A stretch of DNA of 64,000 bases from an uncultured Poribacteria bacterium (GCA_951813545.1 CATOTL010000002.1:5185-69184); one strand, 5' to 3'. Counted from the first letter of the stretch, positions 43,135 through 61,604 are shown. The notes: generated by a model not told the origin, from the sequence alone. A program made the numbers and translations.

Positions 43135-44670
43135 TTATAATCCGTAAATCGTGTAAAGTCTCATTCCTGATGCGCCAGAATAAAACCTGAATGTTGTATT
43201 ACTGACCCGATAAAGTGTAAAATAATCATCTTGATACGAACCGCCAATACGTCTGTTATTCGTTGTGTTTGTCCAAATTTCTAATGGTACAAATGGTGTG
43301 ACAACTCTAGCATTATTTAAACGCATATCAAAAATGATAGCACTAAAATTGTCAAAGCCTTCATCTACGGTTCTATTCGCTCCCGTCGATGGTGATACTC
43401 CACTATCATCGCTAAAAATTTCTGTAAATGCTTTCAAGTTAAGTATCGTTTCAATAGTTTCTCTTCTGACTGAATTGCTTGTCTTATCAATGAAAATTAA
43501 TTCGTCATCAGCCTCTGGGTCTATCTTCGGTATATTATTGAGTAGGTCAAATATATCACTAATACTTTCCTGTTTAATTACATTTTCTGTAGCATCAGAA
43601 AAGACTAATTTGTCACTAAGAACCGCGGTGCCATCTTCCTTACTATCGAGCAAGTCAAGCATGGTGTCAAAAGTTACCTGTCTAATGACATTCTCATCAC
43701 CAGATGTATCAACAAAAAACATCTTGTTAGTAAGAGCAGGTGTATCATCTGCTTTGTTAACGAGCAAGTCAAACATGGTGCTAATAGTCACCTGTTTAAT
43801 AATACTATCTGTAGCATCAACAAAGACTAATTTGTCACCATCAACTGCAGTCCCATCTTCCTTGCTACCAAGCAAGTCAAGCATGGTGCTAATAGTAGAC
43901 TGTTTAACGACATTATCTGTAGCATCAACGAAAGCTATTGAGTCACCAGCAACCGCGGTGCCATCTGCTTTGCTACCAAGTAAGTCAAGGATAGCGTCAA
44001 TTTCTACTTGTCTAACGACACTATCTGTAGCATCAGTAAAGACTATTTTATCACCAACAACCGCAGTGCCATCTTCCTTGCTACCGAGCAAGTCAAAGAG
44101 AACCTTAATAGTCGACCTTTTACTCCCATTGTCCGTTTGGTCAATGAAGACCAATTGGTCATCAAGCACCGCAGTGCCGTCAGCATTTTTAAAGAAAGTG
44201 TCTGATGTATGTTTTATTTCTATAACAGCATCGTCATCAGCTACAAATGTGGTCGTTTCTGACACGTCACACGTAAGTCGAACAAACGACGATGGGGATG
44301 AAACACGAGTTATCTGTTTCAGTACACCTTTCCATGTTTCTCCATCAAAAGTTGTTATAATAATTTCTGTATCAAGCGGGATATTATCTAAAAACGCATA
44401 CGGAAAATCAGCGTCATTCAGACCTATACTACGCTGCTCATTCGCTTGTTGGGCTTCAGTAAATTCACCAGCCTCAGGCGGAAATATTGTAAAAGTTAGT
44501 GTTGCACGCGTATACTCAAAAAAGAGTTCATAAAGATTTCGTGCGAGTAAACGATATGCCAGAGCCTTACCGTCATACCCTGTACCTGTTTTTTTCGTAA
44601 AAAACGGTAATAACGCTTCTCGTAATTCATCTTCTGTGGTTTCCGTAAGATCTCTTGCAAGTATACCCAT
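43135..44670 (-). CDS. Tail fibre-like protein with seven ~36-aa tandem repeats
   Basis: Repeats read (E/A)DGTAVxxDKLVFxDATDxVxKQxTIxxxxDLLxSK. Confidence 0.55.
   Translation of the reverse strand: MGILARDLTETTEDELREALLPFFTKKTGTGYDGKALAYRLLARNLYELFFEYTRATLTFTIFPPEAGEFTEAQQANEQRSIGLNDADFPYAFLDNIPLDTEIIITTFDGETWKGVLKQITRVSSPSSFVRLTCDVSETTTFVADDDAVIEIKHTSDTFFKNADGTAVLDDQLVFIDQTDNGSKRSTIKVLFDLLGSKEDGTAVVGDKIVFTDATDSVVRQVEIDAILDLLGSKADGTAVAGDSIAFVDATDNVVKQSTISTMLDLLGSKEDGTAVDGDKLVFVDATDSIIKQVTISTMFDLLVNKADDTPALTNKMFFVDTSGDENVIRQVTFDTMLDLLDSKEDGTAVLSDKLVFSDATENVIKQESISDIFDLLNNIPKIDPEADDELIFIDKTSNSVRRETIETILNLKAFTEIFSDDSGVSPSTGANRTVDEGFDNFSAIIFDMRLNNARVVTPFVPLEIWTNTTNNRRIGGSYQDDYFTLYRVSNTTFRFYSGASGMRLYTIYGL
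43435..44187 (-). repeat. ~108-bp coding tandem repeats x7
   Basis: Derived from the protein periodicity at aa 162-412. Confidence 0.8.
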
Positions 44671-44877: not shown

Positions 44878-45288
44878 TTAACTTCCCGGAAATTCCATAA
44901 TCTCAATCTCAGTGTCCGCTGTCTCACTGGTGAAATACCACCGCTGTTCGAGTTGTGTGCCATCTTCTACATCAACAGGATTACCATCACTGTCAGGTGC
45001 AGGTGCATCCTCTACCATCATCCGCATCCCTAAGAAACCCTCGTAATGTTCATCTGCAGGGACTGTCCAAAATAGAGGTTTCGGATCCGCTGAGATCGCT
45101 TTCGAGACTTCGCCTTTGATATTAGATATACGCAACACTGCCGACGTAACGCTCGCTCCCGATCTCACCTGTATTCTGAAACCACGACTGCCAATCCCTA
45201 AATCAATGTGGTGTTCATCAAGTGCTGTATCAACAGTGATGATGGGGTGGAAGATAACAGGTCCACGTCCTAATTCATAACCGCGCAT
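44878..45288 (-). CDS. Hypothetical virion-module protein
   Basis: The ATG at 45288 has AAGGAG 5 nt upstream (track start is 45303). Confidence 0.55.
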   Translation of the reverse strand: MRGYELGRGPVIFHPIITVDTALDEHHIDLGIGSRGFRIQVRSGASVTSAVLRISNIKGEVSKAISADPKPLFWTVPADEHYEGFLGMRMMVEDAPAPDSDGNPVDVEDGTQLEQRWYFTSETADTEIEIMEFPGS

Positions 45289-45374
45289 ATTAACTCCTTT
45301 CAAATGGCAATCGCTGAGTAAACATAATTCCTTCTTTTAGGATATTATACAATTAACATGGTTTTTTGTCTACA

Positions 45375-48300
45375 TTATTTACGCAGATCTCTGCGTTCTA
45401 AAGTACGGCGTTTCGGTGTCCGCCTGTTCCTACGCGTTGTTGTAGGTGCGGGTGGCATTGTTGATTCTCCAAAGGATTCAAGGAATTGGTACGCACTTGG
45501 ACCATAACCGGGCGGGCGTATCAATCGTAACGGTGTACGCAGACCTCGCTTCAAATTTTGCTGACGGACACCTTGTACAACATCTGTCGTCAAATCTGCC
45601 ATTGTCCCGAATGCGGGACCTAAAAACGCTTCCTCTGCACCTTGCGCCCAATGCGTCAACTGGTAAAGTATCTCGCCAAAGGTTGTTGCACCGCCTGCCT
45701 GCACGACACCAGCAAAGAAACTTAAATCTTCTTCATCGGGTTCTTGAAATCGGCTAATCCGTCCCAGCAGATTTGTTGCTGTTCCCCACATCCCCGTCGC
45801 TAATAGAATATGCGGAATCAAAACGAACCCGGTTTTGCCGACAGCCAATGCCTTCGTTACAGCTTTGTTTTGAATGCCCATGTCCTCATTCATCCAAGTA
45901 TGCATCACCTTCCACTCCATCTTCAGTCTATCCTTCAACATCTTCGTCTGTGCGAATGAAAACGAACGGAACAACGCTGCAGTCATCAGTACCGGATTAT
46001 CGCGCATCCACTTAAACCTATCCAAGGATTCAACGCGGTGCTGCGTAAAATCCGCCATTTCTTTTGCGTACTCCGCTAAGAAATCATAGACAGGATATAA
46101 GTGTGGCATTTGCTCGCGCACCTCTTTCTCTGTAAGATTCCGAATCGTGTTCATATCCTTCACTGATAAATTCGGGACAGATAGCGCTGCGTTTAACTTC
46201 GGTTTAAGCGTGTGGGCATGCGGAATCGAAAGCAACCGTTCACGTGCTGCGTTTGAACGTTCAGGGTTACGTATCATTTTCTTTATCTTCGCGATCGCAT
46301 GATGTTTGCCTGCACGTGCTGAAATACCCCTATTTAATCTTTCTACTTGGAAAAACGGTGACCATGGCACTGTTTTTATACTCGGATCTTCCCAGTGTTT
46401 TGCAAACGGTGAAAGTGATTTCGGTCCGAATTTCCCGACTTGGTAGCGCGGGGTTGCACCTAACTGCTGATGTAGGGCGCGACTCAAGAAACTGCCAACA
46501 CCCCCGAATTCATGCATCACATCTATTGCAAATGCCCCGACATCCTGTGCTTCGCCGCGTGCTTTATCACTTGTGATAAAGTCAAAGAACCCGCGTATCA
46601 TATTCCGCCAACCTGTTGTCAGCCCAACGTTCACTGTCTGCGACAAGTTCGGAATGAACGCTCTGCCGAGATATGTTAATCCAAAGAAGTTACGCACATT
46701 CCTCGCGACGTTTTTACCGACTTCATCGAATCTATCGCCTTTCCGCCAACCTAACTGCCCGATAATGATGTCCTCCGCAATATGAATGCGTTCTATACCT
46801 TTCGCAAATACCCCTTTAAGCAATATCGGGTTTTCAAGGAAAGGAATACCTTTCGGTGTAAATTGCATGTTCCCATTATCCAACACCTCGATAAACTCAG
46901 CCTCTATCAACGCTTGCCAATCTGCGGGCGACATCGGTGTGATGTTCAACGCACCTACAGGTCTGTTGAAGGTATCCGGCGTAAATTCGAGACGCGTACC
47001 GCTTTCGTTTCTAAACGGTAACCCCGCTTGCGGTTTCCCGCCTTTCTCGAAATCGGAATATCCCGCGGCATACCGCAATTTCGCAACTGCCAATTCTGTC
47101 GGTGACATTGTTGACAATGTTTCATCGTCCGAAAGGAACTCTAACAACTTCGCTTCCAACAAATCGTTACGCTGTCCAAACTCTTTTATCGCCTGCAACC
47201 GATGTCCAGCACGGATGATGTAATAGTCCAACACATTGAAAAAATCCTTACGATAATTTGGAAACACATATTGCCGGGTCTGTTCCAAATTCCCATACTT
47301 CTTTGTTTTCGCTTCTTCTATCCGCGTCGATAAAATATCCAACGCCTCTACAAGCGGTATCTGGTTCGCGTCCGCAACCTCTTGTGCATACGCCTCAAAC
47401 CCCGCACGATTGCGTTCAGGGTCGAGTGCGTTCCAATCAACAATATGTGGGAAATAGTTTTCAACTGGAGTCCACACTTTATGCGGGACTTTGCCTTTGA
47501 ATAGGAAAATCGGATCTCGCGCTTCTCCTGCTTTATAGACAAGCAACTTCTGTGTAAAGTCCGCATACGCATCATGCACACCGCTATAGGTTTTGAAACT
47601 GCCAAACGGTGTCGGTTGGACGGCTTCTTCGGCAGGCACAATCCGCTTGATAATATACAACGGATGCCCGTCCTTCACAATCTCCCACTGTTGGATATTC
47701 GCTATTTTGGAATAAATGATATTCGCACCATCAGGATATTCTAACCCGTTATCAGCAAACGCATCGCGAAGTGGATCCGGCATACCGTCTCGCACCGCAT
47801 CGTCCCATATCGTTCGCGCAGCGTTCCTATCCCCTGTCCATCGTTGGCGACCAGGGTCTCGGTATGCCAGTAATGTGTAATCCGGGTGGTTGCCTAACAA
47901 CGGATTGATAGCCTTCGTTTCGCCTAACAAATCTTGAGAGGCTTCCGTTGCTTCAATCTTAACCTTGTTTCCAAAGGGGTCCTCAAGCATATAGGTTTCC
48001 GAACCCTCTATAATTTCGCTCTGTTGGGTATCTCTATTGTAAAACGTTTTTGATTGCACAAAAACGGCATACACATTGCCAGATGCCTTATCTTGCACGA
48101 AACCTTGCACAACACCCTTTTCACGCGCCTGTTGTCCCATGCTACGCATAAATTTGTCGAACAAAGGACGATCCTGTTCAACTTCGTTTCGGTGTTCTTG
48201 CTTCAAGTACCCTTTATCTACAAAGTCTTCGTTTATATCAAACAACAAGCCCTGACGGAATATATTGTTATTTTCTGATAGGATACGAACTTCAAAGTTT

Positions 48301-51300
48301 TCTTTGAGATACCCGCTCGTCGCTTTTACTATTTTATCAACAATATCCGGGACTTCCGTGTTGCTATCACCTTGCATGTGACGCACCAACATCTCATTCA
48401 ATTCTTCATAAACCTCTTTGAAAGTTCTATTATCTGCTTTTGCCCGTTCTCTCACAAAGTCTTTCCATTCCGGGTGCAGTCTATCTAAAAGATGCGTACC
48501 ACTCCCAGAGGTATTATCTCCAAAATTCCGTATCCGTTTCAGACTTGTCACCAAGTCTTGACCCGTTTTCCCCATCATGTCCAATACCTGTTTCCCCGTC
48601 TGCGGTAAAACCGCATACGCTCCCGCTGTTGTTAGCAAACTGCGTAATCGAGAAGGTATCTGTGTCGGTGTGTTCTCTGGCACATCGTCGGCATCGCGCT
48701 CAACAGATCGCGTCACTGGGATACCTAACTCGGTATCTTGCCTAACGCTACCTGTCTGATAGCCACCGATTCCTGAAACAGACAACAGAGTTCCATCTTC
48801 AACAGATGTCTGTCCGCTCGCAATACGCGTTCGCGCGCCGCGCGCCCCTGCCGAAACTTGTCCTTCCTGTAAAGGCATTTGCCCGGCGGTTGGTTCAGCT
48901 GCCATTTCGGGATCCACATCTGCTCCGCTTCCAACGCTGCCTGCACCGAGTCCACCGAGTTCGGATCCACTTCCTCCCATTGGTGTTGTTGTGGGTGTAG
49001 CGGACATACCAGAAAGTGCATCAGTTTGTGTTGGAACGTCTGATACTTCGCTTCCGCGTTCAGCGTCAGATACTCCATCGCCAACACCAGGTCGAGATGG
49101 TATTGCGGGGCGTGCAACGCCTTGACTCTCTCCCGGACCGCCTCTATCAGTAGGGGGTAAAGATAGAGACTGCCCTCCGGCAAGTCGTAGTCCTGCGGGC
49201 AGATCTGGGTTGCTAATTGGTTGAGTAAATGTCTGTTCGCTTGGACCAACTCCTGTGAACTCCGCGCCAATAGCTTCTTCCGTAAGTGGATATCTTTCAT
49301 GTCGTAACTCCTCTATTTTCGCAAATAATTCGTCAGTGTCTTTTGCAGTGTCTAACATCAGTGAGGATAACTTCCCGCGTTTATCTATCACATAAGCAGT
49401 CCTATTACCGCCAATATCCAAACGTCTCATATAGTAGCGGTCGCTAATTGTATTCCAATACGTGTCCATGCGTTGACGACCCATCGTTATGAATTCTATC
49501 GAAGTGATTGGCATAAGAAAGACAACCCGACCCTTCGGTGCAAGTATCTTCATCGCCTCGTCTAACTTTTGCGCTATATCTTCAACGACATTCAGCAATA
49601 TCACTGTCGGACGTGGCCCCACCCATTCACGAGCGATATTATCCGGGTCTATGTTGTGAACGGCATCAGCAACACCGGGTAGCACTTGATGAAACAAATC
49701 TCGCACATAGCCGTCTGTGTTCGTCGTCTCAACGGTTGCCGCGCCTGCAGCACGCGCGAAAGTTGCGAGTTCACCGTTGTCATCATTTATCGTAAGTACA
49801 CGGTCCTTGTCGGTAATCGCAGCTAAACGCGTACCTAGATAAGATTCCGCATGCGTTAGTGTAGTTCTCACGGTTCTGAATTCATCATAAGTCGATACTG
49901 CGTCTGTTGGGGACTTTACATTCGGGTCGAAGTTTTTAGACAATATCCACTGGTTGGTAACGAAGTGTATGAACTTATTTATTAAAGCGTCATGTCTGCT
50001 TCCCATCGCGACTGATTCGTTGAAATGAATCCTGTAGAGATCATAAGGATTTATGTTATCACCATTTTCAAGGTCTGTGATAACATCTTCGATAAAAGCA
50101 TCGCGTTCTTTTGATGGCGTTGTTAAACCGTGTTCAACGCCATAATCGGAGTCAATCGTCGTCTCATGTAAACGTCCTGAAATACCGAGTGCAGCTTCAA
50201 ATTCATAGGTCGGTATCATCTGTTGGTATGCATCTTTGTAGCGATTATCTTCTTTTAAACCGTCAAACCATGCAAATTGGATACCAGCATCTGTACCTCC
50301 CCTACCTGGATGTTTGTGTTGGGTATTCAGCACCTGATTCCAACTTGATTTCGCAATATCCGCTTTCGTTTTATACCAATCACCTTCACCGACAAATACA
50401 TCAACATACAGACCGCCCCGAGATCGCGCTTCACCTTCAATGAAACTCCATAACTGTGCAGGTTCAAGAAGATGCAAATCCTTGTATTCTTGGACATCCA
50501 AAATTTCACCATGACGTCCCTTGAAAAATATCGTTGTCCAATTTAACTCTGTTTGCAGATATTTTGCTAATTTTGCGATACCTTTTAGATAGGATTCTTC
50601 TCTTTTAACATTCGTTCTTGGCAGCCCCGCGGATTCATTATACAATTTCAAAAGTTTTCCTGTCTCAGAATTGACATCATATTGGTAAAGTGGATCCCCC
50701 GGACGGATACTCGTATTACGTCTAAAAAAGCCTTTTTGTTGGGTTTTCTCCCACCCTAATTCCGCTTCACTTAACCCTATATTGTCGCGGTTACGGATTT
50801 TCCAATTACCCCTCTCATCTTGGTACGGTTTGGCTTCCGCATATTCGAGCGAGTTGACAACAATCTGTCCGAGATACTGTTCGCCATACTGCGTTAGGTC
50901 CGCTTTCGCACTCAATTTATCGCCATCTGAGAACATCGCGGGACCACCGGGATGGTTGTGCATCTGAATGAAATACTTTGCATTTAACCGGCGCATGTGG
51001 TAGTTGACGCGGGGGTAGTTGGGGGGGACAGCTTGACCGGGTACACCGAAAGATACCACCTCGTGTCCAACGATATTGTAATTCTCGTCTAAATAGAAAT
51101 CGACAAACCTTTCGAGTCCGGGATGTCTGAACAACTGTCCCATCACGGCTAACTCTTTGTGTGACGTGATTTTGTAGCCGCGTAAGTCGATATGCAACCC
51201 TTTACGGAGGTTCGTAAACACACCGCGTACACGTCTTTCTATTGCTGGCGTTGTCGCAAATTGACGACGATTGATTGCGTTCTGTACCGAGTCGATTTCG

Positions 51301-54300
51301 GTGTAGATACCGCCTTTGTAGAGCGGTTTCCATTTATAGTCCTTACCTTCAATGTCCTTGAGTACTTCGTTGACAGCACCTTTCGCAGTTTTCGCATAAG
51401 AGATACCCTCTGCAGCATTGTATCGAGGATACCGTATCTCCACAGCCCACATCGGATCGTCTTTTGTGCCTAACCGTCTTACCGTCACCTGTGGTGTTTC
51501 TTTGTGTCCGTCAAACATATAGATTTGCGTGTCACCGCTTTTACTGTATTTCTCACGTTCCATTGCAACCCTATCGACGCGCAACTCACCAAACGGTCTC
51601 TCTGTCGATTTCACTGGCGGTGGCAAACTCTCAAGCAAGGTATCGTTTGTCGATTGATAAGGTTCGCCACTCGGTGAGCCTAACCCACCTTTCCCTATCT
51701 CAAACTGACGGAGATTCGCAATTGCTGCGATCGCGGCTTCTTCAGGGCTGTTTCCTGCTGCCATCTCCATAATAGCGTCAATATTCTTGTGATTCGGGAA
51801 TCGGACAGTGACTTCCATTGTACCGTCATCAAGTCCGTGTGGGTCTGGGTCCACAGTGATGGAATAGTCAGGGTTCTCGTTACCCGCTGCGTCCGCGATT
51901 TTCAACCATACCAACCCGTCTGTCGTTTGCTTGGGTTTCAAGTGGATTTCGGATGGCAGTGGACTCGGCATGTTCCCTGCCACGCCTTGTGCATCCAACG
52001 CATCATCAACGGGGTCCGGATCCTCGTTCAATCCGTCCCATACACTGTCGTCAAAGTAATCAGCAAGAAACCGCTGAACCGCATCTAACGGGCTTTCAGC
52101 GAAATTTCTAACAATGACAAAACCTGTTTCCGACTGTACCATCTCCGATTCCACATAAATATAGTACTCGTTATCACCCAAAAAATCTACCTTGATACGC
52201 ATCGCGGGGTCAAGTCCGGGAATTGCGTACGCCATGCCCGCGCGGCTACCAGTATCTTTATCCTTGAACGCCTTTTCTTCTGCAATCGGGGGCATTTTGT
52301 CGATACGACGCTGTTGAACTTCTGTCAGCGCTGGGGCATAGGTGCGGGGGTTGTCGCCGTAGGTGAATTTGATGTCTAAATTAGAGAGAGCAGCATTAAT
52401 CGCGCCACGTGCCTGTTTATCTGTAAACCGTCCGAAAATTCTTTCTTCTACTGTGTTCTTTGCATAACCCGGTATATCAAACGTGATTTCTACCTTTCCT
52501 TCTTCCGGGTCACGGACAACAGAGATGAAAATATCACCATTCTCGCCTGCACTATAGATACGCTTTGCCGGTGTATCCTTCGTTTTCGGGGCATAGTGAA
52601 TCAATGTTGGCGTAGAGAAACTCACCTCATTGTGCGCGCGTTCACTAACCGCACGGTCATATTGCTGAAGCACATGCGCACCGAATTGCGTTTGAACATC
52701 TTCGCGCAACCTCGCTTCATCTATAATCTCGCCACGATACTGACTTATCGTTTTTTGGATCTCAACCAAGTCGTTTATCACATCTTCGGGCATGTGACGC
52801 GGCAGTGTATATTTTTCAGCGAATTCGACTTTATTCGGTAAACGTTTCGCACCCTTGAAATCGCCTTGAAGGATACCTCTGAAATACTGTTGGGCAAGCG
52901 CACGGATATTCTGACGGTATGCCCTATCTGCTTGCTCATATTCCTCGTCTGTAACGGCTTCGGGTTCAGGCTCAGCATCTTCAGGTTCTGTTTCTGTATC
53001 TTTTCCTTCCTGTTTTTGTTCAGACTTTACATAAAATTTACCATCTTCTACAACACCTAAAATATATTTATTCAGATCAATTTCATTTTCAACAAGAACT
53101 TCATGAACATTACCCTCTTGTAATAAAGTGATAGCCTCTTCACCTGAAAACCTATATTGCGATTTTAGTTTATCAACTTGTTCTTGAAAATTTTGGTAAA
53201 GTTTTTCTTCAATTTCAGGTGCAACTTCTACTCCAAATCCATCACCTCTAAAAGACTTTAACTCAAAAACACCTGTTTCTCTTGCAGCTGCCATAAATGA
53301 TTTTGAAAGAGCTTCAGTAGCAACTATAGCCCCGTCTCGAACCAACGACTCTATATCTAAAATAACTCCATACCTTTTAATATTTTGATAAACATCTCCT
53401 TTTTTTGTTGCCAAAAACACATATTTTTGATCTCCTGCAGCAACATCTGCCAAACTTAATATGCCTGTACCAAGAGTTTGTTCTTCAGTAGATTGCTTTA
53501 ACATGTCTGAGGAAAAGATTTTGCCACTTTCCAGAATTTTATCATATACTTGTTGTGCTTCTATTGTATCCAAAATAAGATGTATAGCTGCATTTTCGGG
53601 CAATGTTTCCGTCTCAACCATTCCATAATTAACACCTGAAACAGATATGGTTTTTACTGCTGGTGTGGGTTCTTCGCCTTCTTCTTCATCAACTTTATCT
53701 TCATGTTCTTCCTCCTCAATAGGTTCAGGTTGGGGTTCTGGCGGTGTCGGTTCTACGCTACGCTGATTCGCTTGCCGACGTATCTGTTCCATCAGGTTAT
53801 CAACGTAGGCACGCGTGATGTCCTTCGCCCTCGCAATGTCACCCGCTTCCAACTGCTTCTGTAGAATTTCTGTAGGATTCGCCCATAGCAAATCGTATAA
53901 CTGCTGTTCAAAAAACACTTCTTTCGTAAACGGGTCTGCGAACAATTCTTCCTTCGCGGGGTCCAATTCCAACACTTCATTGACATACCGCATAAATATC
54001 GACGCGAGTTGTTGGTACGCACCTATCCGATGATCCATGATATAGAGCATCTGCAACGTCGGCACATTCAAATCACCGATGTTCGTTTTCGGTTGAAACA
54101 ATAAATCTTGCTTGAAAAAATCGCCAACGATGTCACCGTTCTCTTTGAGTGTGTTCAGCATGCCGACGGCGCGCGCTAATTCCTCTGCGATAGAATGATG
54201 TGCTTCGCGTCGGTTGCTACGGAAATAGGATTCAAGTAATGCTAACTGGGGGACAATAACATCGAGCATGTTATTGATATTTTGGATTTCGCCAAATTTA

Positions 54301-57300
54301 CTTTCAATCAGAATTTTGGACATGTGGAGTCCATATTCACCATTGAAAACGTACCGAAGCATCATTGCCCGGACACGTTCACCACCACGCGATGAAAAAC
54401 TTTCACCATCGCTTTGTAGGAACGCATTCCGCATACGCGCCGGTATGTTTTTTAGCAATTTTTGACGGAATTCTAAATTGTCTTTATGGTTAAGTGCCTC
54501 CGCGAAAGTCAAGCCCGCCTTGCCTTTCCACTCTAACATAATATCATCTCTGAGGTAAGATGCGTCGCTACTTGCTTGCTCGGAAGAAGTATCCTCTAAT
54601 CCCGCGAATTGGTTTGCATCTTTGGCAAGTTGCACTTCATCGACATCATCAACAATCCGACGAATCAAAATGGACTCCGGGTCTCCGTCCACATCTGCTG
54701 CGTCTTTGCCATAGCGATGCACATTCTTTCGCAGATAATCTCGATACTTTTCCCACTGCTCCGGGTAGTCCTGAAGCATCTTTTTCAATATATATAGCCG
54801 TCCTGAACCAGATACGGATGCGTCAGGATACTCTTTAGACAATGCTGGTGCGCCATCAGATAATTGCGCAAAATGGTCAATAAGGAATTCGGGGGCAACG
54901 TCTCTCGCTTTTTCATCAAGGAATTCTAAATCGACTGTGCTACCGCGCTGATCTCGGGGTTGAAGTCCGGCTGGATAGTTTTCGTTCTCGCTGCCATCAA
55001 GGTTATGCGATCCTTGCACTTCGTTGATATTGACCAAATCGTACTCGACACGATACCGCCCTTTCCGCGCTGAATCGCGCACAAACCTGTCCGGTGTGCC
55101 TTCAAGGGTCCCACCCAAGCGTTTATCCGTTTCTTTCTCCATGTAGTCTATCATGTCGGAAAGTGAATCAAACGTCGGATAAAAGGCTTCGGCTTCCTCA
55201 TGGTCTGTCCATTTGTGCTTTGTTGTCTGGTAAATCGTATCACTGCCGGATACGTTCATCGCTTCAGCTTCGGTGCGTTTCGGGTCGTTGGCGAAATAAA
55301 GAACACGCCCACCGCCGCGCACTGCACCGCCAACGTTTTTCATATCTTGGTAGACATTGAAATGGCTACCCTCCTCGGTAGACATCGCAGCGTCGATGCT
55401 GATACGGTCGGGGTCGTCGATTGCTGATACCTGTTCGTCAGAGAATTCTTCGCCATACTGTTCTTGCGCCTGTCCGAGCGTCAACCGTTCGCGCGGTTCG
55501 GTATCCTCAGCAGTTTCTTCAGGCTCCACGGCTCCTTCGGTATCTTCCGGTGCTGCTTCCTGTGTTTCTTCTTCAGCAGCTGCTTCTTCGGGTTCAACCG
55601 GAGATTCGCCTTCAGCGTCCTCGTCAGTAGGTTTGGCTTCATCTTTCGTCTCCCATGCTTCTCTTTTTGCATCAAACGCAATACTGTGCCACACATTCGG
55701 ATTCTTTAAATTATCAGGTAAATTTGTACCATTAATCAAAGCATCCATCATACCAAGATACAATAAATCAACCTGTTGTCCTACTAAACGCGTAGCATGC
55801 ATAAAATCATCCTGTGATAAATTCGGATTCATTGTAGTCAAAACCTCTATTTCATGTTTATAGAATTCTATAAGCATGGATTTCAATGTGGCTTCATCTA
55901 CAACATTTGCAGGATTGAGTTTTTCTGCTATTTGTTTATCATGAATTGGAATACTCTCTAATTTATTCTCTGGTTTGGTATAAACAACCTTATCCTGTAC
56001 AATACCAATCAAATACTCATGAAGATCTAACTTTTGTGGAGCAATCAACTCAAAATGATTACCTGCTACTGAAAACCTTCTAATAAATTCAAGTGTTTTA
56101 TTTACATCTGCGTTTGGATACCTTAATAAACGCAGTCCACCTTCTTTTACCGCTTTTTCAAGATTTAGTATAAATCCGTAGTTATGGCGATCTGTATTTT
56201 TTCGGTAATAAGCACCATGTGAAGCATATACATACTGCGTACGATAGTTTGGATTATCCGGGTCAAAATTTGCAGCATCAGGAGCCCATATTGCCTCCTG
56301 ATTTAAGATGTTTGAAAAAGCAACAAGTTCGTCCTCACCTGATTCAGCAATCTCTGAAACCATGTGGTCTGCATCATTTGCATCACTATATCCAGCAGAA
56401 CGTACATCGTCCCTTACATACTCATGCGGAGTATTACCAATATTAAAAGTAATACTTTCAGGTCCAGGAGCAGGTTGAATTTCATCAGCAACTTCTTCAT
56501 CGCCTTCAGGGGCTGCGTCCTGTGTGGGTTCGGCATCACCAGCAGTTTCATCATCGGGTATAGGTACATCATCATCGGGTTCGACGGCTTCCTGCTGATC
56601 CTCGATAGGAATAATAGCATCTTCTTCTGGCGGTGTCCAACCCGGTGCTTGCTCATACTCTTTCGCGAAGTCTTGCGCTGCTAAATCTAAAGCGTCCTCG
56701 AAAGAGATACCCTTACGTTTGATATTCAACATTCCATCAAACAGTATTTTTTGACCGACATATCCTAACAGCTCCAACAACAGTTCATCGTTCTGGATAT
56801 ACAGATTTAAAGTCTCTATTCCATATTCCACAAATTTACTGATTTTGCCTGACTTTTTTAATTCGTGAAATTTCTTTTGGAGTGCTGGACCATAAAATTC
56901 ATCGTTCATCATATCTCGTAGAAGTTTTTTCGAGATATGTACCCGCTTTTTATCTTTTAAGAGTGCTTTCTCAACCTGATCGCGCACAAGGTCGTGGACC
57001 TTGTTCATTTTCTGCATCCGAAGTGCTTTGTGTGCTATCCCCAAATCGCTTGCAGCTTTACGCAACCCACTCCTGAGCGATGCTGCCCGTGTCGCACCGG
57101 AGATAATCGTTAACACGTCCAAAAGATCGCCTATGTCGCTTCCTGTTGTCGTCAATGCTTTCGCTGAATAAAACGTACCGACAAAAGATTTCGGCAGCTC
57201 AATAACCGCAACCGTTCCTTGTCCAATCGCTTCATTCCCCGTAATTTCACCGAGAAACCGCCCCGTCGCTCCTTGCGCTTTCTCAATAGCACCCATTGCA

Positions 57301-57716
57301 CCTTCGGCTAATTCTTCACCTTCATAAACACGTCCCACCTGTCCCGTAAAATCTTCTACGATTTGCTCCGGGTTATTCATTCTACGTCTAAATTCTCCAT
57401 GCGCCATAAACGCGCTTTCACCAAACCGTAAGTACGTACCGGGCCACCATGACCGCCGTTTTTGTGCAAAGTCTAAAGTATACCCTTTATCCATTTCTTC
57501 AAGGATCACAAGCGCACGCTTTTCGTTCAATGCACCACTTTCCACCATTTGTTTGAATTTCTGACCATCAGGCGTTTTTTCAAATTCCGACCATTCATGA
57601 GACCGAAATTGTGGGTTTGCTGATGCATCCGATTCTTCGGAAAGGGGTTCTTCTGTTTCAACTTCAGGTTGAATTTTTTCTTCTTGCATGTCAGCCAACC
57701 TTTTCATGCTTCTCAT
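45375..57716 (-). CDS. Giant (4113 aa) multidomain polyvalent virion/ejection-type protein
   Basis: Uninterrupted 12.3-kb ORF. It contains a RadC/JAB motif, a duplicated ~160-210-aa module, a ParB-like GLQPRDQR motif, a Rossmann MTase-like segment, acidic and G/S/P linkers, C-terminal hydrophobic helices and an Arg-rich tail. Confidence 0.8.
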   Translation of the reverse strand: MRSMKRLADMQEEKIQPEVETEEPLSEESDASANPQFRSHEWSEFEKTPDGQKFKQMVESGALNEKRALVILEEMDKGYTLDFAQKRRSWWPGTYLRFGESAFMAHGEFRRRMNNPEQIVEDFTGQVGRVYEGEELAEGAMGAIEKAQGATGRFLGEITGNEAIGQGTVAVIELPKSFVGTFYSAKALTTTGSDIGDLLDVLTIISGATRAASLRSGLRKAASDLGIAHKALRMQKMNKVHDLVRDQVEKALLKDKKRVHISKKLLRDMMNDEFYGPALQKKFHELKKSGKISKFVEYGIETLNLYIQNDELLLELLGYVGQKILFDGMLNIKRKGISFEDALDLAAQDFAKEYEQAPGWTPPEEDAIIPIEDQQEAVEPDDDVPIPDDETAGDAEPTQDAAPEGDEEVADEIQPAPGPESITFNIGNTPHEYVRDDVRSAGYSDANDADHMVSEIAESGEDELVAFSNILNQEAIWAPDAANFDPDNPNYRTQYVYASHGAYYRKNTDRHNYGFILNLEKAVKEGGLRLLRYPNADVNKTLEFIRRFSVAGNHFELIAPQKLDLHEYLIGIVQDKVVYTKPENKLESIPIHDKQIAEKLNPANVVDEATLKSMLIEFYKHEIEVLTTMNPNLSQDDFMHATRLVGQQVDLLYLGMMDALINGTNLPDNLKNPNVWHSIAFDAKREAWETKDEAKPTDEDAEGESPVEPEEAAAEEETQEAAPEDTEGAVEPEETAEDTEPRERLTLGQAQEQYGEEFSDEQVSAIDDPDRISIDAAMSTEEGSHFNVYQDMKNVGGAVRGGGRVLYFANDPKRTEAEAMNVSGSDTIYQTTKHKWTDHEEAEAFYPTFDSLSDMIDYMEKETDKRLGGTLEGTPDRFVRDSARKGRYRVEYDLVNINEVQGSHNLDGSENENYPAGLQPRDQRGSTVDLEFLDEKARDVAPEFLIDHFAQLSDGAPALSKEYPDASVSGSGRLYILKKMLQDYPEQWEKYRDYLRKNVHRYGKDAADVDGDPESILIRRIVDDVDEVQLAKDANQFAGLEDTSSEQASSDASYLRDDIMLEWKGKAGLTFAEALNHKDNLEFRQKLLKNIPARMRNAFLQSDGESFSSRGGERVRAMMLRYVFNGEYGLHMSKILIESKFGEIQNINNMLDVIVPQLALLESYFRSNRREAHHSIAEELARAVGMLNTLKENGDIVGDFFKQDLLFQPKTNIGDLNVPTLQMLYIMDHRIGAYQQLASIFMRYVNEVLELDPAKEELFADPFTKEVFFEQQLYDLLWANPTEILQKQLEAGDIARAKDITRAYVDNLMEQIRRQANQRSVEPTPPEPQPEPIEEEEHEDKVDEEEGEEPTPAVKTISVSGVNYGMVETETLPENAAIHLILDTIEAQQVYDKILESGKIFSSDMLKQSTEEQTLGTGILSLADVAAGDQKYVFLATKKGDVYQNIKRYGVILDIESLVRDGAIVATEALSKSFMAAARETGVFELKSFRGDGFGVEVAPEIEEKLYQNFQEQVDKLKSQYRFSGEEAITLLQEGNVHEVLVENEIDLNKYILGVVEDGKFYVKSEQKQEGKDTETEPEDAEPEPEAVTDEEYEQADRAYRQNIRALAQQYFRGILQGDFKGAKRLPNKVEFAEKYTLPRHMPEDVINDLVEIQKTISQYRGEIIDEARLREDVQTQFGAHVLQQYDRAVSERAHNEVSFSTPTLIHYAPKTKDTPAKRIYSAGENGDIFISVVRDPEEGKVEITFDIPGYAKNTVEERIFGRFTDKQARGAINAALSNLDIKFTYGDNPRTYAPALTEVQQRRIDKMPPIAEEKAFKDKDTGSRAGMAYAIPGLDPAMRIKVDFLGDNEYYIYVESEMVQSETGFVIVRNFAESPLDAVQRFLADYFDDSVWDGLNEDPDPVDDALDAQGVAGNMPSPLPSEIHLKPKQTTDGLVWLKIADAAGNENPDYSITVDPDPHGLDDGTMEVTVRFPNHKNIDAIMEMAAGNSPEEAAIAAIANLRQFEIGKGGLGSPSGEPYQSTNDTLLESLPPPVKSTERPFGELRVDRVAMEREKYSKSGDTQIYMFDGHKETPQVTVRRLGTKDDPMWAVEIRYPRYNAAEGISYAKTAKGAVNEVLKDIEGKDYKWKPLYKGGIYTEIDSVQNAINRRQFATTPAIERRVRGVFTNLRKGLHIDLRGYKITSHKELAVMGQLFRHPGLERFVDFYLDENYNIVGHEVVSFGVPGQAVPPNYPRVNYHMRRLNAKYFIQMHNHPGGPAMFSDGDKLSAKADLTQYGEQYLGQIVVNSLEYAEAKPYQDERGNWKIRNRDNIGLSEAELGWEKTQQKGFFRRNTSIRPGDPLYQYDVNSETGKLLKLYNESAGLPRTNVKREESYLKGIAKLAKYLQTELNWTTIFFKGRHGEILDVQEYKDLHLLEPAQLWSFIEGEARSRGGLYVDVFVGEGDWYKTKADIAKSSWNQVLNTQHKHPGRGGTDAGIQFAWFDGLKEDNRYKDAYQQMIPTYEFEAALGISGRLHETTIDSDYGVEHGLTTPSKERDAFIEDVITDLENGDNINPYDLYRIHFNESVAMGSRHDALINKFIHFVTNQWILSKNFDPNVKSPTDAVSTYDEFRTVRTTLTHAESYLGTRLAAITDKDRVLTINDDNGELATFARAAGAATVETTNTDGYVRDLFHQVLPGVADAVHNIDPDNIAREWVGPRPTVILLNVVEDIAQKLDEAMKILAPKGRVVFLMPITSIEFITMGRQRMDTYWNTISDRYYMRRLDIGGNRTAYVIDKRGKLSSLMLDTAKDTDELFAKIEELRHERYPLTEEAIGAEFTGVGPSEQTFTQPISNPDLPAGLRLAGGQSLSLPPTDRGGPGESQGVARPAIPSRPGVGDGVSDAERGSEVSDVPTQTDALSGMSATPTTTPMGGSGSELGGLGAGSVGSGADVDPEMAAEPTAGQMPLQEGQVSAGARGARTRIASGQTSVEDGTLLSVSGIGGYQTGSVRQDTELGIPVTRSVERDADDVPENTPTQIPSRLRSLLTTAGAYAVLPQTGKQVLDMMGKTGQDLVTSLKRIRNFGDNTSGSGTHLLDRLHPEWKDFVRERAKADNRTFKEVYEELNEMLVRHMQGDSNTEVPDIVDKIVKATSGYLKENFEVRILSENNNIFRQGLLFDINEDFVDKGYLKQEHRNEVEQDRPLFDKFMRSMGQQAREKGVVQGFVQDKASGNVYAVFVQSKTFYNRDTQQSEIIEGSETYMLEDPFGNKVKIEATEASQDLLGETKAINPLLGNHPDYTLLAYRDPGRQRWTGDRNAARTIWDDAVRDGMPDPLRDAFADNGLEYPDGANIIYSKIANIQQWEIVKDGHPLYIIKRIVPAEEAVQPTPFGSFKTYSGVHDAYADFTQKLLVYKAGEARDPIFLFKGKVPHKVWTPVENYFPHIVDWNALDPERNRAGFEAYAQEVADANQIPLVEALDILSTRIEEAKTKKYGNLEQTRQYVFPNYRKDFFNVLDYYIIRAGHRLQAIKEFGQRNDLLEAKLLEFLSDDETLSTMSPTELAVAKLRYAAGYSDFEKGGKPQAGLPFRNESGTRLEFTPDTFNRPVGALNITPMSPADWQALIEAEFIEVLDNGNMQFTPKGIPFLENPILLKGVFAKGIERIHIAEDIIIGQLGWRKGDRFDEVGKNVARNVRNFFGLTYLGRAFIPNLSQTVNVGLTTGWRNMIRGFFDFITSDKARGEAQDVGAFAIDVMHEFGGVGSFLSRALHQQLGATPRYQVGKFGPKSLSPFAKHWEDPSIKTVPWSPFFQVERLNRGISARAGKHHAIAKIKKMIRNPERSNAARERLLSIPHAHTLKPKLNAALSVPNLSVKDMNTIRNLTEKEVREQMPHLYPVYDFLAEYAKEMADFTQHRVESLDRFKWMRDNPVLMTAALFRSFSFAQTKMLKDRLKMEWKVMHTWMNEDMGIQNKAVTKALAVGKTGFVLIPHILLATGMWGTATNLLGRISRFQEPDEEDLSFFAGVVQAGGATTFGEILYQLTHWAQGAEEAFLGPAFGTMADLTTDVVQGVRQQNLKRGLRTPLRLIRPPGYGPSAYQFLESFGESTMPPAPTTTRRNRRTPKRRTLERRDLRK
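50832..51239 (-). other. RadC-like JAB/MPN metalloprotease domain inside the giant ORF (aa ~2160-2295)
   Basis: LERFVDFYLDENYNIVGHEVVSFG ... FIQMHNHPGGPAMFSDGD, matching the E ... HxHP-x6-S-xx-D JAMM signature. Confidence 0.75.
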
Positions 57717-57942
57717 GATGGAAACATTCTAAAATGCCATCTGTGTTATACGCAAAAAGATAAGTCCCTTCGCTTAACACAACAGAAAGTGATGTTTGAG
57801 ACTTCGCTTCTTTCGCACTACACCGCTTTTCGTCCATATATAAAACAACAGCATCAAGCAAGTCTCTGTGAATAGATTCTATTTCTTCAGACGAAAACAT
57901 TTCACAAATATCTTCAAACGAAAGCGAATTGTGGGTAGACAT
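57691..57942 (-). CDS. Hypothetical protein
   Basis: 83-aa ORF overlapping the annotated giant-ORF start by 26 nt. Confidence 0.5.
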   Translation of the reverse strand: MSTHNSLSFEDICEMFSSEEIESIHRDLLDAVVLYMDEKRCSAKEAKSQTSLSVVLSEGTYLFAYNTDGILECFHHEKHEKVG

Positions 57943-57954
57943 AGGAACTCCTCG

Positions 57955-59523
57955 TTATTGCACCAAAATAAATTTATCCCACACACTCTGCGGGATCGCA
58001 ATTTTTGTTTTGCTTACCGATTGCCTTCTATTCATTGGGCTTCGATAGACAAGCACACCATCATAAGCATAGCCTTCACTTTTACTCGCAATACCTGAAA
58101 CAACCAATACAGTGTTCGGTGAAATCAACAAACTAAAAGGCTTCAATTTTAAATTTTTTTCGCCAATATATCTAATACGACTGCCGATGTCCCACCCTTG
58201 TTGCGCGATTGCATCCGACATATTTCGGATTTCAGATTGTATGCGTTCATATTCAGCCACCATCCGATCCCGACCGTATGAAGGGGAGCGTCCCGCCTTT
58301 ATGCGCTCATAGATGGATTTTCCTTTTTCAGTTTGTGTTGAATCCGGTTCTTCTGTCGATTGCGTCTGTTCTGTCTGCGTCTCTTGCTGCGTCCCTTGCT
58401 GTGATTGTTGCTGTGATTGTTCTTCCAGCGATACTGGGAGATTCAGCCAAGCCGAGCGTCCTTGCTGAAACGAGTTAGTCACAGATGCATTCACCCAATT
58501 ATAGTACTGTTTCCCGGGTTCAGATTCAAAGAAATCGTTAATTTGGATTGCTTCTTGAATACTGATAATAATACTTCTCAACGTTTCTTGATCTTTCAGT
58601 TCGCTTCCAGCATCTTGATCGTTAAAGACGATTCCTCTATCGGTTTCATCAAGATAATCAGCATACTTTTTCAAAGTCTCAGACGCACTGTCCTTTAAAT
58701 TATTAATGATACGCATCATTCTGTTCGGTGGGATTCCTTGATGCGCCGCTTGTCTCGCCTTTTTGTACAAATTGTCGGCAGCTTTCATGTAATCCGCCTC
58801 AGTCGCTTTCCGTCCTTCAACCTCATCTTTACCCCCGAATATATCAGGCACTCTATTTATATCCGTTATCTTCACTGGTATTTCATACAACGGTGCAAGT
58901 GCTGCTAATCCAACATCCGTAGATTCAAGTTGCCCAAGCGACGGTGGCTCCCAGTCGTTGGTTTTCTTGGAATCATCAATCTTGTTGTAGGCACGCCAGA
59001 AATCGCGTCCTCTATCACCGTCCCGGATTGTCGCTTCATAGATAGCAACCGCTTCCTGTTGTGGGTCTGTATTCCCCAACGCTCGGATAATATCCGTTTG
59101 CGTCTGTTTCGAGAGTCTGTGCTTCTCTGCCAACTCTAATGCCCGGTTGGTTCTGTAGTCCAACATCTCTTTGTCGTAAGTTTGCTCTTGCTGTAACACA
59201 GCAAGTTTGGTTTTCCGATCCTGTCGTCCCTTGACTTGCTCCTGTTCGACATCGAAACGCCCTTCAGTTTCCGCAACAGCAACATCAGAGGAATACTTAA
59301 ACGCAGCAATGTTCGACTCTGCTGTACGCAAATCGGTGTATGCTTTCTTCAACTCACTGCTTACAGTGTTGTACTGTTTTTCATATTGCGCTGCTTCCAT
59401 TTGCGCGATTTTCGCCTTAAAACTCTCGCGCGCGATGTCCTCGCCAACCTTATCACCTTCTGCACGGGCGAGTTTTATTTTCTGTAAATCTGTTGCAATT
59501 GCGGGGACTGTTCTGCCTGCCAT
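57955..59523 (-). CDS. Coiled-coil/Q-rich internal virion protein candidate
   Basis: 522 aa with GGAG upstream. Contains the low-complexity stretch QQSQQGTQQETQTEQTQ. Confidence 0.5.
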   Translation of the reverse strand: MAGRTVPAIATDLQKIKLARAEGDKVGEDIARESFKAKIAQMEAAQYEKQYNTVSSELKKAYTDLRTAESNIAAFKYSSDVAVAETEGRFDVEQEQVKGRQDRKTKLAVLQQEQTYDKEMLDYRTNRALELAEKHRLSKQTQTDIIRALGNTDPQQEAVAIYEATIRDGDRGRDFWRAYNKIDDSKKTNDWEPPSLGQLESTDVGLAALAPLYEIPVKITDINRVPDIFGGKDEVEGRKATEADYMKAADNLYKKARQAAHQGIPPNRMMRIINNLKDSASETLKKYADYLDETDRGIVFNDQDAGSELKDQETLRSIIISIQEAIQINDFFESEPGKQYYNWVNASVTNSFQQGRSAWLNLPVSLEEQSQQQSQQGTQQETQTEQTQSTEEPDSTQTEKGKSIYERIKAGRSPSYGRDRMVAEYERIQSEIRNMSDAIAQQGWDIGSRIRYIGEKNLKLKPFSLLISPNTVLVVSGIASKSEGYAYDGVLVYRSPMNRRQSVSKTKIAIPQSVWDKFILVQ

Positions 59524-59640
59524 AATTTACTCCATATTGAAATGCGAACGTCTGCGCGAATTTCGTTGGGTATTCTGTGGCATTACCGGTTTCCGATACC
59601 CCAAGAAATTCGTCTTTTTATCCAAATCTTCGGTTCTAAA

Positions 59641-59662
59641 ACCCCCAGTCTTTAGACGGGGG
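59641..59662 (-). repeat. CTAAAG-loop hairpin, copy 7
   Basis: Plus strand reads ACCCCCAGTC TTTA GACGGGGG. On the minus strand it is followed by TTTT. Confidence 0.6.
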
Positions 59663-59699
59663 ATACAGAACCGCTCCTGTATTGTGGCAAAAAAAACCT

Positions 59700-59728
59700 T
59701 TGACTTTTGACGAAAAATGTGATACACT
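59700..59728 (+). promoter_or_regulatory. Possible antisense promoter TTGACT-17nt-TACACT
   Basis: Read directly. It faces opposite to the flanking genes. Confidence 0.35.
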
Positions 59729-60057
59729 TTTCTTTGTATTCGGCATTGGTTGCAGTTGATGCACTGGTATATTGCTTGGTATTTGAGACAACTGTGTAAA
59801 AGCCTCATACGCCTCAAGAAATATCTAAAATATGCTCGTCACGTGTTCGGGAAATCCGAGTCATGTCGTATCCCACGAGAATGTAAAGAGGTTAATAGCC
59901 TCTCGCAGCACGTCAAAATGTTCATAAGGCACTTCGGTGCGGGGGCGGGGTAGCGTCCCTTGTGCTTAGGCATCGTGAGACTTTCGTTTTTGACATTCTC
60001 AAAATGAAAGCAATGTCGTTTGAAGCCACAAATGCTTTCGCATAAAGTTTGCGGAAG

Positions 60058-60078: not shown

Positions 60079-60136
60079 TCTATCACCTACAATCGTAACC
60101 CCGTCTTTCTGGTTACCATCAAGTATTTTCATCCTC

Positions 60137-61594: not shown

Positions 61595-61604
61595 AATAAA
61601 CTCC

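Follow-up and report, generated by a model that had tools for sequence, protein, structure and literature searches.

A giant cysteine-free polyvalent protein, probably an ejection protein of an uncultured podovirus-like phage, and the gene embedded in its linker

The window analysed here, 64,000 nucleotides from an uncultured Poribacteria bacterium (GCA_951813545.1, CATOTL010000002.1:5185-69184), carries on its minus strand one gene encoding a protein of 4113 amino acids (a.a.). We consider it likely, with a probability of roughly 0.65, that a podovirus-like phage with a ∼67-kb genome encodes this giant protein as the largest of its three internal virion (ejection) proteins. This reading is based on the apparent relationship of the C-terminal domain of the giant to gp37-type internal virion proteins, on the position of the giant gene, and on the cysteine-free composition and basic C-terminal tail of the protein. 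The ∼3000 residues ahead of the C-terminal domain are a string of modules of the kind known from polyvalent proteins, and the linker between the two parts contains a second gene in the +1 frame.

RESULTS

Profile and structure searches link the C-terminal domain to internal virion proteins of the gp37 type

The family of the giant protein is defined by its C-terminal ∼1070 a.a. A profile made from three C-terminal sequences had 325 matches (HMMER, E ≤ 1e-3) among 1.84 billion representative proteins, whereas a word-indexed search with the same region found two relatives only. Among the matches listed, the domain is at the C-terminus of every giant, including proteins of 2536-3970 a.a. and super-giants of 6772-7912 a.a. 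Hundreds of shorter proteins (800-1900 a.a.) have four collinear blocks in common with this domain; some of them match phrog_342 ('internal virion protein with endolysin domain'), and some match phrog_684 or phrog_6958 ('virion structural protein'). One profile of the family (A7, with 75 members) matches gp37 of phage phiKMV, the largest internal virion protein of that phage and the functional analogue of T7 gp16, with a score of 39.4 bits over three collinear blocks; by comparison, 300 locally shuffled copies of gp37 reach at most 7.0 bits and the other structural proteins of T7 and phiKMV at most 6.6 bits. The AlphaFold2 model of the domain has a predicted local distance difference test score (pLDDT) of 87 and a predicted template modelling score of 0.82. 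By Foldseek, this model matches structures predicted for the internal virion or core proteins of three phages (Xylella phage Cota, Ralstonia phage RSB3 and Burkholderia phage JG068), as well as entries named 'Internal virion protein D' and the C-terminal parts of proteins named 'Large polyvalent protein associated domain' (E-values of 8e-7 to 6e-2, probabilities of 0.80 to 1.0). We conclude that the C-terminal domain and the gp37-type proteins probably share one broad superfamily; the T7 gp16 family proper is not included in this claim.

A reading of the window made earlier from the nucleotide sequence alone (the sequence-only reading) had described a C-terminal region that ends in hydrophobic helices and a basic tail, and this description holds. 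There is one strong hydrophobic helix (hydropathy peak at a.a. 3956-3974), followed by a weaker, Gly-rich amphipathic helix, and the last 24 residues are the basic tail RRNRRTPKRRTLERRDLRK, which resembles the basic C-terminus of T7 gp16 (..NLRERRK). C-terminal transmembrane helices are common to gp16-like proteins, and in T7 and its close relatives the basic C-terminus is required for infectivity (PMC8954989).

The giant protein and its neighbours contain no cysteine

The giant protein has no cysteine among its 4113 residues, compared with 1.12% cysteine in the other open reading frames (ORFs) of the window (P ∼8.5e-21). It is part of a cysteine-free block of four neighbouring genes (44878..61612, minus strand), whose products of 491, 522, 4113 and 141 a.a. 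make up 5267 residues. Homologs of up to 7912 a.a. and the neighbours of the orthologs are likewise cysteine-free. The same is observed for known ejection proteins: T7 gp15 and gp16 and phiKMV gp35, gp36 and gp37 have no cysteine, and the tail, fibre and terminase proteins of these phages have two to seven. The absence of cysteine may thus be a usable predictor of ejected proteins.

The gene takes the place of the third internal protein in a T7-like late gene order

The giant gene had been described as lying between tail-fibre-like genes and internal-protein-like genes, and its neighbours are as described: upstream are the genes for the 522-a.a. and 491-a.a. proteins, and downstream are those for a 511-a.a. 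repeat protein and a 388-a.a. protein. The 491-a.a. protein carries a Gly-zipper membrane segment at its N-terminus and an Arg-rich tail at its C-terminus; neither it nor the 522-a.a. protein shows sequence similarity to T7 gp14/15 or phiKMV gp35/36.

The order of the late genes could be followed across the window ends with the help of L005, a 67.6-kb contig that carries a 3970-a.a. ortholog. In L005 (positions 332-5260) the window genes at 2-1367 are found directly upstream of those at 63323-64000. Because the genes cut at the two window ends adjoin in L005, the window represents ∼95% of a circularly permuted genome of ∼67 kb, and the ∼3 kb absent from it holds tail genes. The late order starts (through the L005 join) with the portal, a putative scaffold, the capsid protein and tail genes (one FlgD_ig in relatives); it continues with the 491-a.a. 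protein, the 522-a.a. protein, the giant, the 141-a.a. protein and repeat-rich fibre-like proteins, and ends with two small membrane proteins, a CHAP hydrolase and a nuclease. The portal matches the Pfam families P22_portal and SU10_portal. L005 and a further locus, L007, have this arrangement as well, and it mirrors the orders gp14-15-16-17 of T7 and gp35-36-37-38 of phiKMV (three internal proteins, then the fibre).

The gene is a single intact reading frame

An ORF of 12.3 kb covering about 19% of the window had been reported, and we recovered it as a single unbroken frame of 4113 codons and a stop (19.3% of the window) with a product of ∼462 kDa and pI 5.0. It is not a chance frame, as the other two frames of the same strand have longest open runs of only 195 and 94 codons over the same stretch. 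The most upstream ATG is that at 57716; the third one, at 57689 (Met10), is one base past the stop of an upstream 83-a.a. ORF (TGAcATG) and has a purine-rich stretch on its 5' side, and the start of the ortholog in locus L003 corresponds to it. For these reasons 57689 is probably the true start, giving a product of 4104 a.a.

Could the ORF be an artefact in which assembly or sequencing errors have joined several neighbouring genes? The gene is in pieces on two contigs: in L001 a frame change at the linker divides it, and in L011 it is fragmented. However, L011 is labelled as having 2x coverage and the name of L001 is typical of a long-read assembly. Intact relatives (2536-3970 a.a. overall) are found in independent metagenome assemblies, among them ORFs of 3787, 3970, 3475, 3159, 3056 and 2955 a.a. 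from different samples, and the order of domains is the same in relatives. A fusion artefact is therefore extremely improbable, and the frame is unlikely to have been made or broken by errors. As for L001 itself, the frame change lies between the linker and the C-terminal domain (L001:1377-1531); given the long-read style of the contig name it is probably an indel error, the alternative being a genuinely split gene.

The N-terminal ∼3000 residues are a string of modules

The sequence-only reading divided the rest of the protein into an N-terminal helical region, a duplicated module, a ParB-like GLQPRDQR motif, a RadC/JAB domain and a Rossmann methyltransferase-like region, with acidic or G/S/P-rich linkers in between. 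The linkers, the duplicated module, the ParB-like motif, the RadC/JAB domain and, at the level of the fold, the methyltransferase-like region are confirmed, and the N-terminal region is probably helical, as detailed below. Positions of all modules are listed in Table 1.

The GLQPRDQR motif lies within a match to the ddrB-ParB family (PF18763; E = 5e-11; score 43.2 bits, cutoff 27.6 bits), and the motifs QPR(D/E)xR and GxGR of this family are conserved among relatives. The similarity extends beyond the domain itself: a.a. ∼870-1290 align (tblastn, 23-33% identity) with DdrB of phages P1, P7 and D6 and with 'DdrB-like ParB' phage proteins.

The RadC/JAB domain has a marginal Pfam score in the giant itself (PF04002; 25.7 bits against a cutoff of 22.1) and a higher one in the ortholog P0003 (36 bits). 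A family profile matches the RadC structure 2qlc in PDB (E = 2e-6), and Foldseek places the AlphaFold2 model of the domain on 2qlc with a TM-score of 0.71. E2188 and the JAMM motif HNHPGGPAMFSDGD (E...HxHx7Sx2D) do not vary among seven family members whose aligned core is 32-58% identical.

Self-BLAST at 1e-3 found no internal repeat in the giant. The duplicated module is nevertheless real, as a very divergent pair: by phmmer, copy 1 (a.a. 416-605) matches the end of copy 2 (i-Evalue 1.4e-5), with only ∼21% mutual identity, and the copy 1 domain is also found in the proteins P0006 and P0030. Copy 1 contains the motifs YG(F/V)ILD..E and ID(L/V)N(E/K)Y(L/I)xG(I/V)(V/I)E. Neither a search against Pfam (no named family) nor a four-sequence profile run against 5.8 billion proteins (zero matches) assigned the module to a family; we also considered that its motifs might be ADP-ribosyltransferase-like, but no match supported this.

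Between copy 2 and the RadC/JAB domain, a.a. 1570-1705 gave a weak GntR-like hint only, and no similarity was seen between this segment, a possible winged helix, and the DprA winged helix of P0003. The segment is followed by four tandem small domains, each a β-sheet with one helix (∼85-110 a.a.), that belong to no named family and are conserved in all close relatives, where they mark the start of the conserved core; units 1, 3 and 4 are related to each other (hhalign, P ∼2e-5 to 8e-5). Downstream of the RadC/JAB domain, the conserved α/β domain (a.a. ∼2371-2483) has the invariant residues KYL..N..T..F, Y.DLH.L and GDWY.

For the methyltransferase-like region, the class-I fold is upheld: Foldseek matches it to many methyltransferases (best E-value 7.5e-6; local pLDDT 70-90), and a LAPxGRxV motif is conserved. 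An assignment by sequence did not follow, with no family match in Pfam, NCBIfam or PDB and a degenerate motif I (VLTxxDxDGxLAT, with D-x-D/N-G and not GxGxG). The N-terminal region gave a coiled-coil-type Tektin match, and a.a. 10-410 are probably helical. Composition confirms both kinds of linker, acidic ones with 22-31% D+E (a.a. ∼301-450, 701-800, 1301-1345 and 1501-1600) and a stretch with 42-49% G/S/P/T (a.a. 2801-3000); the latter is more than a linker, being dual-coding (see below).

A scan of the giant protein found no HExxH, HxxEH, Walker A, DExH or [DNS]PP[YFW] motif. It matches no zincin peptidase family, and no RNA polymerase family in Pfam, NCBIfam, PHROGs or PDB; the whole protein searched against PDB sequences gave noise only. 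A reading as an N4-like virion RNA polymerase (vRNAP) was considered and rejected, as there is no polymerase domain.

Conservation and exchange of modules

A comparison with six relatives and a BLAST map show that the back half of the protein is conserved, in two parts: a.a. ∼1700-2870 (the repeats, the JAB domain, the domain of no matched family and the methyltransferase fold) and a.a. ∼3000-4113. The closest comparison is with the ortholog in L003 (L003:1856-13219). Both copies of the duplicated module are swapped there for shorter, unrelated segments and a.a. 10-410 are 49% identical, while the rest of the protein is ∼88% identical. Because the module copies differ while the remainder is 86-88% identical, the comparison indicates an exchange of cassettes that would be recent. 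In P0003 a DprA winged helix lies within the cassette region, and in P0003 and P0006 the G/S/P/T-rich linker is ∼100-130 a.a. shorter.

The pair of RadC/JAB and C-terminal domain is also present in five distant giants (P0010, P0011, P0022, P0025 and P0032), and further effector domains (NADAR, RRM and DprA) occur in distant members of the family. Neither a megablast search with the giant gene nor a tblastn search with the C-terminal half of its product had a match among 50,697 phage records.

The 7912-a.a. protein P0025 (L006:10001-33739) has no cysteine and combines the same C-terminal domain with NADAR, RRM and DprA-like domains; in its vicinity are Acb2/Tad1-hairpin and Tad3 anti-defence genes and a gene for a 962-a.a. 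lysozyme-domain protein. P0003 (3475 a.a.) is encoded on a 68.3-kb Tara Oceans scaffold (L012), which suggests that the phage group is marine.

A gene is embedded in the linker in the +1 frame

The G/S/P/T-rich linker also encodes, in the +1 frame, a protein of 191 a.a. that is basic (pI 8.8) and has five cysteines. Its ATG lies 7 nt after an AGAGGAG. An ORF at the same position is found in L003, L005, L001, L007, L011 and L013, and all of these products form one protein family (E-values of 1e-58 to 1e-97 to the profile). The window together with L003, and L005, L001, L007 and L013, represent five divergent lineages (six loci); L011 is additional and of low coverage. No match to the embedded protein was found in Pfam or PDB.

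Several comparisons show that selection acts on the embedded frame and that the linker is dual-coding. Identity in the embedded frame exceeds that in the main frame in every pair (0.28 versus 0.18 for the most distant pair), and nucleotide differences are fewest at main-frame third positions, which is the reverse of single-frame coding. When synonymous codons are permuted with the main-frame protein kept, 4-10 stops appear in the embedded frame; the zero stops observed have P ≤ 0.0015. Alignment scores of the +1 frame are above those of the main frame in all six of six pairs, and 7-20 standard deviations (z) above a null in which both main-frame proteins are preserved. The ATG is in register in all five aligned loci, and AGAGGAG, AGAGGA or AAGGGGGA is found 5-7 nt upstream in four of the five. 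The longest +1 ORF of the whole gene is longer than in locally shuffled versions (P of 0.008 to <0.002 in four lineages). This last test is not specific on its own, as seen from L014:35-9205 (protein P0008), where a non-homologous Arg/Ser-rich +1 ORF of 170 codons at a.a. 1956-2126 also passes it (P = 0.003); the homology-based tests carry the weight.

The L014 result could be taken to mean that the +1 ORF is no gene but a by-product of linker composition and main-frame conservation: hydrophobic codons are scarce in the linker, and +1 stops are less frequent as a result; moreover, the ORF is missing from L012 (P0003), as well as from the distant giants in L006 and L008. Alternatively, the ORF could be an alternative C-terminus reached by frameshifting, which the Shine-Dalgarno-like AGAGGAG could in principle stimulate. 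Chance composition is difficult to reconcile with one protein family at the same place in five lineages and L011, with scores above a null that preserves the main frame, or with start codons in register behind Shine-Dalgarno sequences; as for frameshifting, no main-frame stop or slippery site was noted. We regard either explanation as unlikely. The embedded protein would most likely be a dedicated partner of the giant (for example a chaperone, an assembly factor or a packaging factor).

Table 1. Features of the giant gene and of its cysteine-free neighbours (window coordinates; residues are those of the 4113-a.a. frame)
Feature	Residues	Position	Strand	Basis or remark
Giant ORF		45375..57716	-	4113 codons and stop
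Probable true start codon	Met10	57687..57689	-	stop of 83-a.a. ORF adjacent; start of L003 ortholog
N-terminal region	10-410	56487..57689	-	22-33% identical in P0004, P0005 and P0007
Variable module, copy 1	∼421-600	55917..56456	-	phmmer, relatives; replaced in L003
P1 DdrB-like module	871-1320	53757..55106	-	similarity to DdrB, Pfam
ddrB-ParB domain proper	∼885-1020	54657-55064	-	Pfam PF18763
Variable module, copy 2	∼1345-1570	53007..53684	-	divergent paralog of copy 1; present in P0006
Four tandem small domains	∼1699-2127	51336..52622	-	AlphaFold2 model, hhalign
RadC-type JAB domain	∼2180-2315	50772..51179	-	Pfam PF04002, profile, Foldseek
JAMM motif HNHPGGPAMFSDGD	2253-2266	50919-50960	-	invariant in seven family members
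Conserved α/β domain	∼2371-2483	50268..50606	-	no family matched; invariant residues
Class-I S-adenosylmethionine (SAM)-methyltransferase (Rossmann) fold	∼2639-2790	49347..49802	-	Foldseek
G/S/P/T-rich main-frame linker	∼2806-3030	48627..49301	-	composition; poorly conserved
Embedded gene (191 a.a., +1 frame)	overlaps ∼2806-2997	48725..49300	-	own ATG and ribosome-binding site
C-terminal family-defining domain	3040-4113	45378..48599	-	profile family, AlphaFold2
Hydrophobic, transmembrane-like helix	∼3953-3983	45768..45860	-	hydropathy
Arg/Lys-rich tail	4090-4113	45378..45449	-	recurs in many homologs
491-a.a. cysteine-free protein		60137..61612	-	position of first internal protein
522-a.a. cysteine-free protein		57955..59523	-	position of second internal (tunnel) protein; L005 ortholog
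141-a.a. cysteine-free protein, downstream		44878..45303	-	adjoins giant gene also in L005 and L001

Other genes of the window

The 511-a.a. fibre-like protein (43135..44670, minus strand) consists of about seven repeats of ∼38 a.a. with the consensus DGTAV.GDK.VF.DATD..(V/I)(K/R)Q..I....DLLGSK; a 422-a.a. antisense ORF (43265..44533, plus strand) is probably a by-product of these repeats. A likely lysis cassette (39269..41127, minus strand) encodes membrane proteins of 92 and 128 a.a., a CHAP hydrolase of 212 a.a. and a staphylococcal-nuclease-like protein of 195 a.a. A GIY-YIG homing endonuclease (phrog_314, E = 3e-36) and a 166-a.a. ORF are found among the structural genes at 61605..62147 (minus strand) and are absent from this place in L005. 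A group-1 glycosyltransferase and a radical-SAM protein (30741..31688 and 35044..36111, minus strand) lie within a block of unassigned genes, possibly a module for modification of DNA or of the surface.

DISCUSSION

Comparison with known systems

The concept of a polyvalent protein, proposed for this ORF by the sequence-only reading, fits: several unrelated effector-type domains, including the hub domain DdrB-ParB, are encoded beside virion genes. The suggestion that the protein is packaged and injected gains independent support from the C-terminal domain, the position of the gene, the cysteine-free composition and the basic tail. Polyvalent proteins of phages and conjugative elements have from two to fifteen distinct effector-type domains per polypeptide, and those of phages are encoded among late or virion genes (PMC5512222). 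The giant resembles them in having a ddrB-ParB domain, a RadC/JAB domain, a methyltransferase fold and at least four unnamed conserved modules, in lying next to virion genes and in the cassette-like turnover of its domains. It differs from them in several respects. The zincin-like metallopeptidase (MPTase), the top hub of these proteins and their proposed processor, is frequent among them and not obligatory (PMC5512222); the giant has none (no HExxH). DdrB-ParB has been reported from phages only, and RadC only from polyvalent proteins of conjugative elements (PMC5512222), whereas the giant joins the two. Its presumed virion-targeting module is gp37-like, and not a MuF, a portal or the C-terminus of the N4 vRNAP. 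Iyer et al. (2017) mention neither internal virion proteins nor gp16 (PMC5512222), and in full-text literature searches we found no connection between polyvalent proteins and a gp37-like ejection domain. The kind of protein is thus known, as are unannotated relatives in databases; the gp37-like C-terminal module, the combination of DdrB-ParB with RadC and the embedded gene appear to be new.

Like phiKMV gp37 and T7 gp16, the giant is encoded by the last and largest of three internal-protein genes, just before a tail-fibre gene; it shares with them the lack of cysteine, C-terminal hydrophobic helices, a basic C-terminus and an N-terminus that bears an accessory enzymatic module. To gp37-type proteins there are in addition a profile match, which is transitive, and matches of predicted structures, which have low TM-scores; with T7 gp16 no similarity is detectable, and the C-terminal fold of the giant has no counterpart in PDB. 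The gp16-like proteins listed in PMC8954989 have 609-1337 a.a., so the giant is three times as long as the longest of them. Its cargo is ∼3000 a.a. of modules that appear to be directed at nucleic acids or nucleotides, and not a transglycosylase.

The sequence-only reading had named P1 DarB-like proteins as the known example. This link was misplaced: the relation is to DdrB, a protein of the capsid-packaged Dar anti-restriction system, and is confined to the ddrB-ParB module. In contrast to Dar, the giant has no DarB-type N6A methylase or superfamily-2 helicase (no motifs and no family matches), the genes darA, hdf, ddrA and ulx were not seen here, and packaging would rely on fusion to an ejection protein and not on the Dar assembly pathway.

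The vRNAP of phage N4 has ∼3500 a.a. and, being a virion-carried multidomain protein of more than 3000 a.a., is a precedent for ejecting such a chain. The C-terminal part of this protein (gp50) serves encapsidation (PMC5512222). The giant differs in having neither an RNA polymerase nor a zincin domain, and its C-terminal domain is of another family. Finally, the embedded gene resembles Rz/Rz1-type genes (T7 18.5/18.7) in being complete, with its own start, inside another frame of another gene; here, however, the host gene is a 12-kb virion gene, and the product has 191 a.a., is soluble-looking and basic, and has no lipoprotein signal and no family match.

A possible mechanism

If the giant is an ejection protein, its C-terminal ∼1070 a.a. 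would seat it in the core of the capsid, above the portal; after ejection through the tail, the hydrophobic helices would insert into the inner membrane and the basic tail would hold DNA. The N-terminal ∼3000 a.a. would replace the small peptidoglycan hydrolase of T7 gp16 with a string of effector modules on acidic flexible linkers. The conserved core of this string would consist of the four repeats, a RadC/JAB metalloenzyme, the unassigned domain and the methyltransferase fold, and the exchangeable cassettes ahead of it would be the DdrB-like ParB module and the two copies of the unnamed domain. The modules would enter the cell with the DNA or just before it, and may target host defences based on nucleic acids or nucleotides (for the ParB-like module NTP sensing or degradation has been proposed, and for RadC a nuclease role; PMC5512222). 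Being free of cysteine, the 462-kDa chain could pass the channel and the oxidizing periplasm unfolded, without forming disulphides, and then refold. The 191-a.a. protein would be made separately from its own ribosome-binding site, as a partner of the giant. As no zincin peptidase is present and the JAB domain is widely conserved, one may speculate that JAB is the processing enzyme in its place.

Evidence against the proposed role, and alternatives

Several results weigh against the role of an ejection protein. The homology to gp37 is transitive, because a profile made from close relatives only does not reach gp37 and because pairwise searches (phmmer with gp37 and T7 gp16 against the 150 best family proteins, giants included) gave nothing. 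T7 gp16 scores 6.6 bits against profile A7, which is no match, and it was also unmatched when the C-terminal profile was searched against PDB sequences (noise only). Foldseek of the C-terminal model against PDB had no match at E ≤ 0.001, although the gp16-containing entry 7EYB (PMC8954989) was expected there, and the TM-scores to the viral models are low (0.15-0.35). The portal had no tblastn match among isolated phages, so that podovirus morphology rests on the Pfam portal matches and the gene order. The methyltransferase fold has no canonical SAM motif and may be inactive, and the biochemistry of RadC is unsettled (PMC5512222). Packaging of the giant in the virion is itself something we infer, from sequence comparisons and gene order. 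With 462 kDa, the giant would exceed any ejection protein that, to our knowledge, has been demonstrated experimentally.

Two other roles have to be considered. The giant could be a polyvalent protein that is not packaged: made during infection, it would act in the cytoplasm (in anti-defence or DNA metabolism), and the position of its gene among late genes would be incidental. ParB-like, RadC and methyltransferase-fold cargo would be equally workable if made in the cell. What makes such a role quite improbable is the combination of a C-terminal domain related to internal virion proteins, an order among structural genes that is conserved in several phages, a cysteine-free composition common with bona fide ejection proteins, and a hydrophobic helix and basic tail. 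The giant could, on the other hand, be mainly a structural core or scaffold protein, whose enzyme-like domains are decayed relics serving as bulk or binding surfaces. The degenerate motif I of the methyltransferase fold, the large part of the chain with no detectable enzymatic family and the lack of zincin peptidase, Walker A and helicase motifs would all be expected of such a protein; yet the JAMM residues are invariant across relatives as little as 32% (up to 58%) identical, the ParB motifs are conserved, the N-terminal cassettes are swapped between near-identical phages, as would be expected of arms-race effectors, and distant members carry the effector domains NADAR, RRM and DprA. On balance we find a scaffold role rather improbable too, and prefer the reading of the giant as an ejection protein that carries effectors.

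Significance

An ejection protein of this kind would join two separate literatures, that on polyvalent effectors and that on podovirus ejection proteins, and it offers a testable route by which huge effector arrays may enter the host: fusion to an ejection protein of the inner membrane. More tentatively, and as a reading that we hold to be less likely than not, the gp37-like domain may be a general delivery platform in a largely uncultured phage lineage for 1,500 to ∼7,000 residues of exchangeable cysteine-free effectors, with RadC/JAB as a widely conserved enzymatic module and possible processing enzyme and the overprinted gene product as a chaperone or packaging factor. The lack of cysteine, the basic C-terminal tail and the gene order could be used to flag ejected proteins in uncultured phages, and the giant family (up to 7912 a.a.) has many unnamed domains that are candidates for counter-defence activities. 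The embedded gene shows that low-complexity 'linkers' of giant viral ORFs can conceal genes. If the delivery-platform reading is true, these would be the largest virus-injected proteins known, and the embedded gene would represent a new class of accessory factors that has been missed by gene callers.

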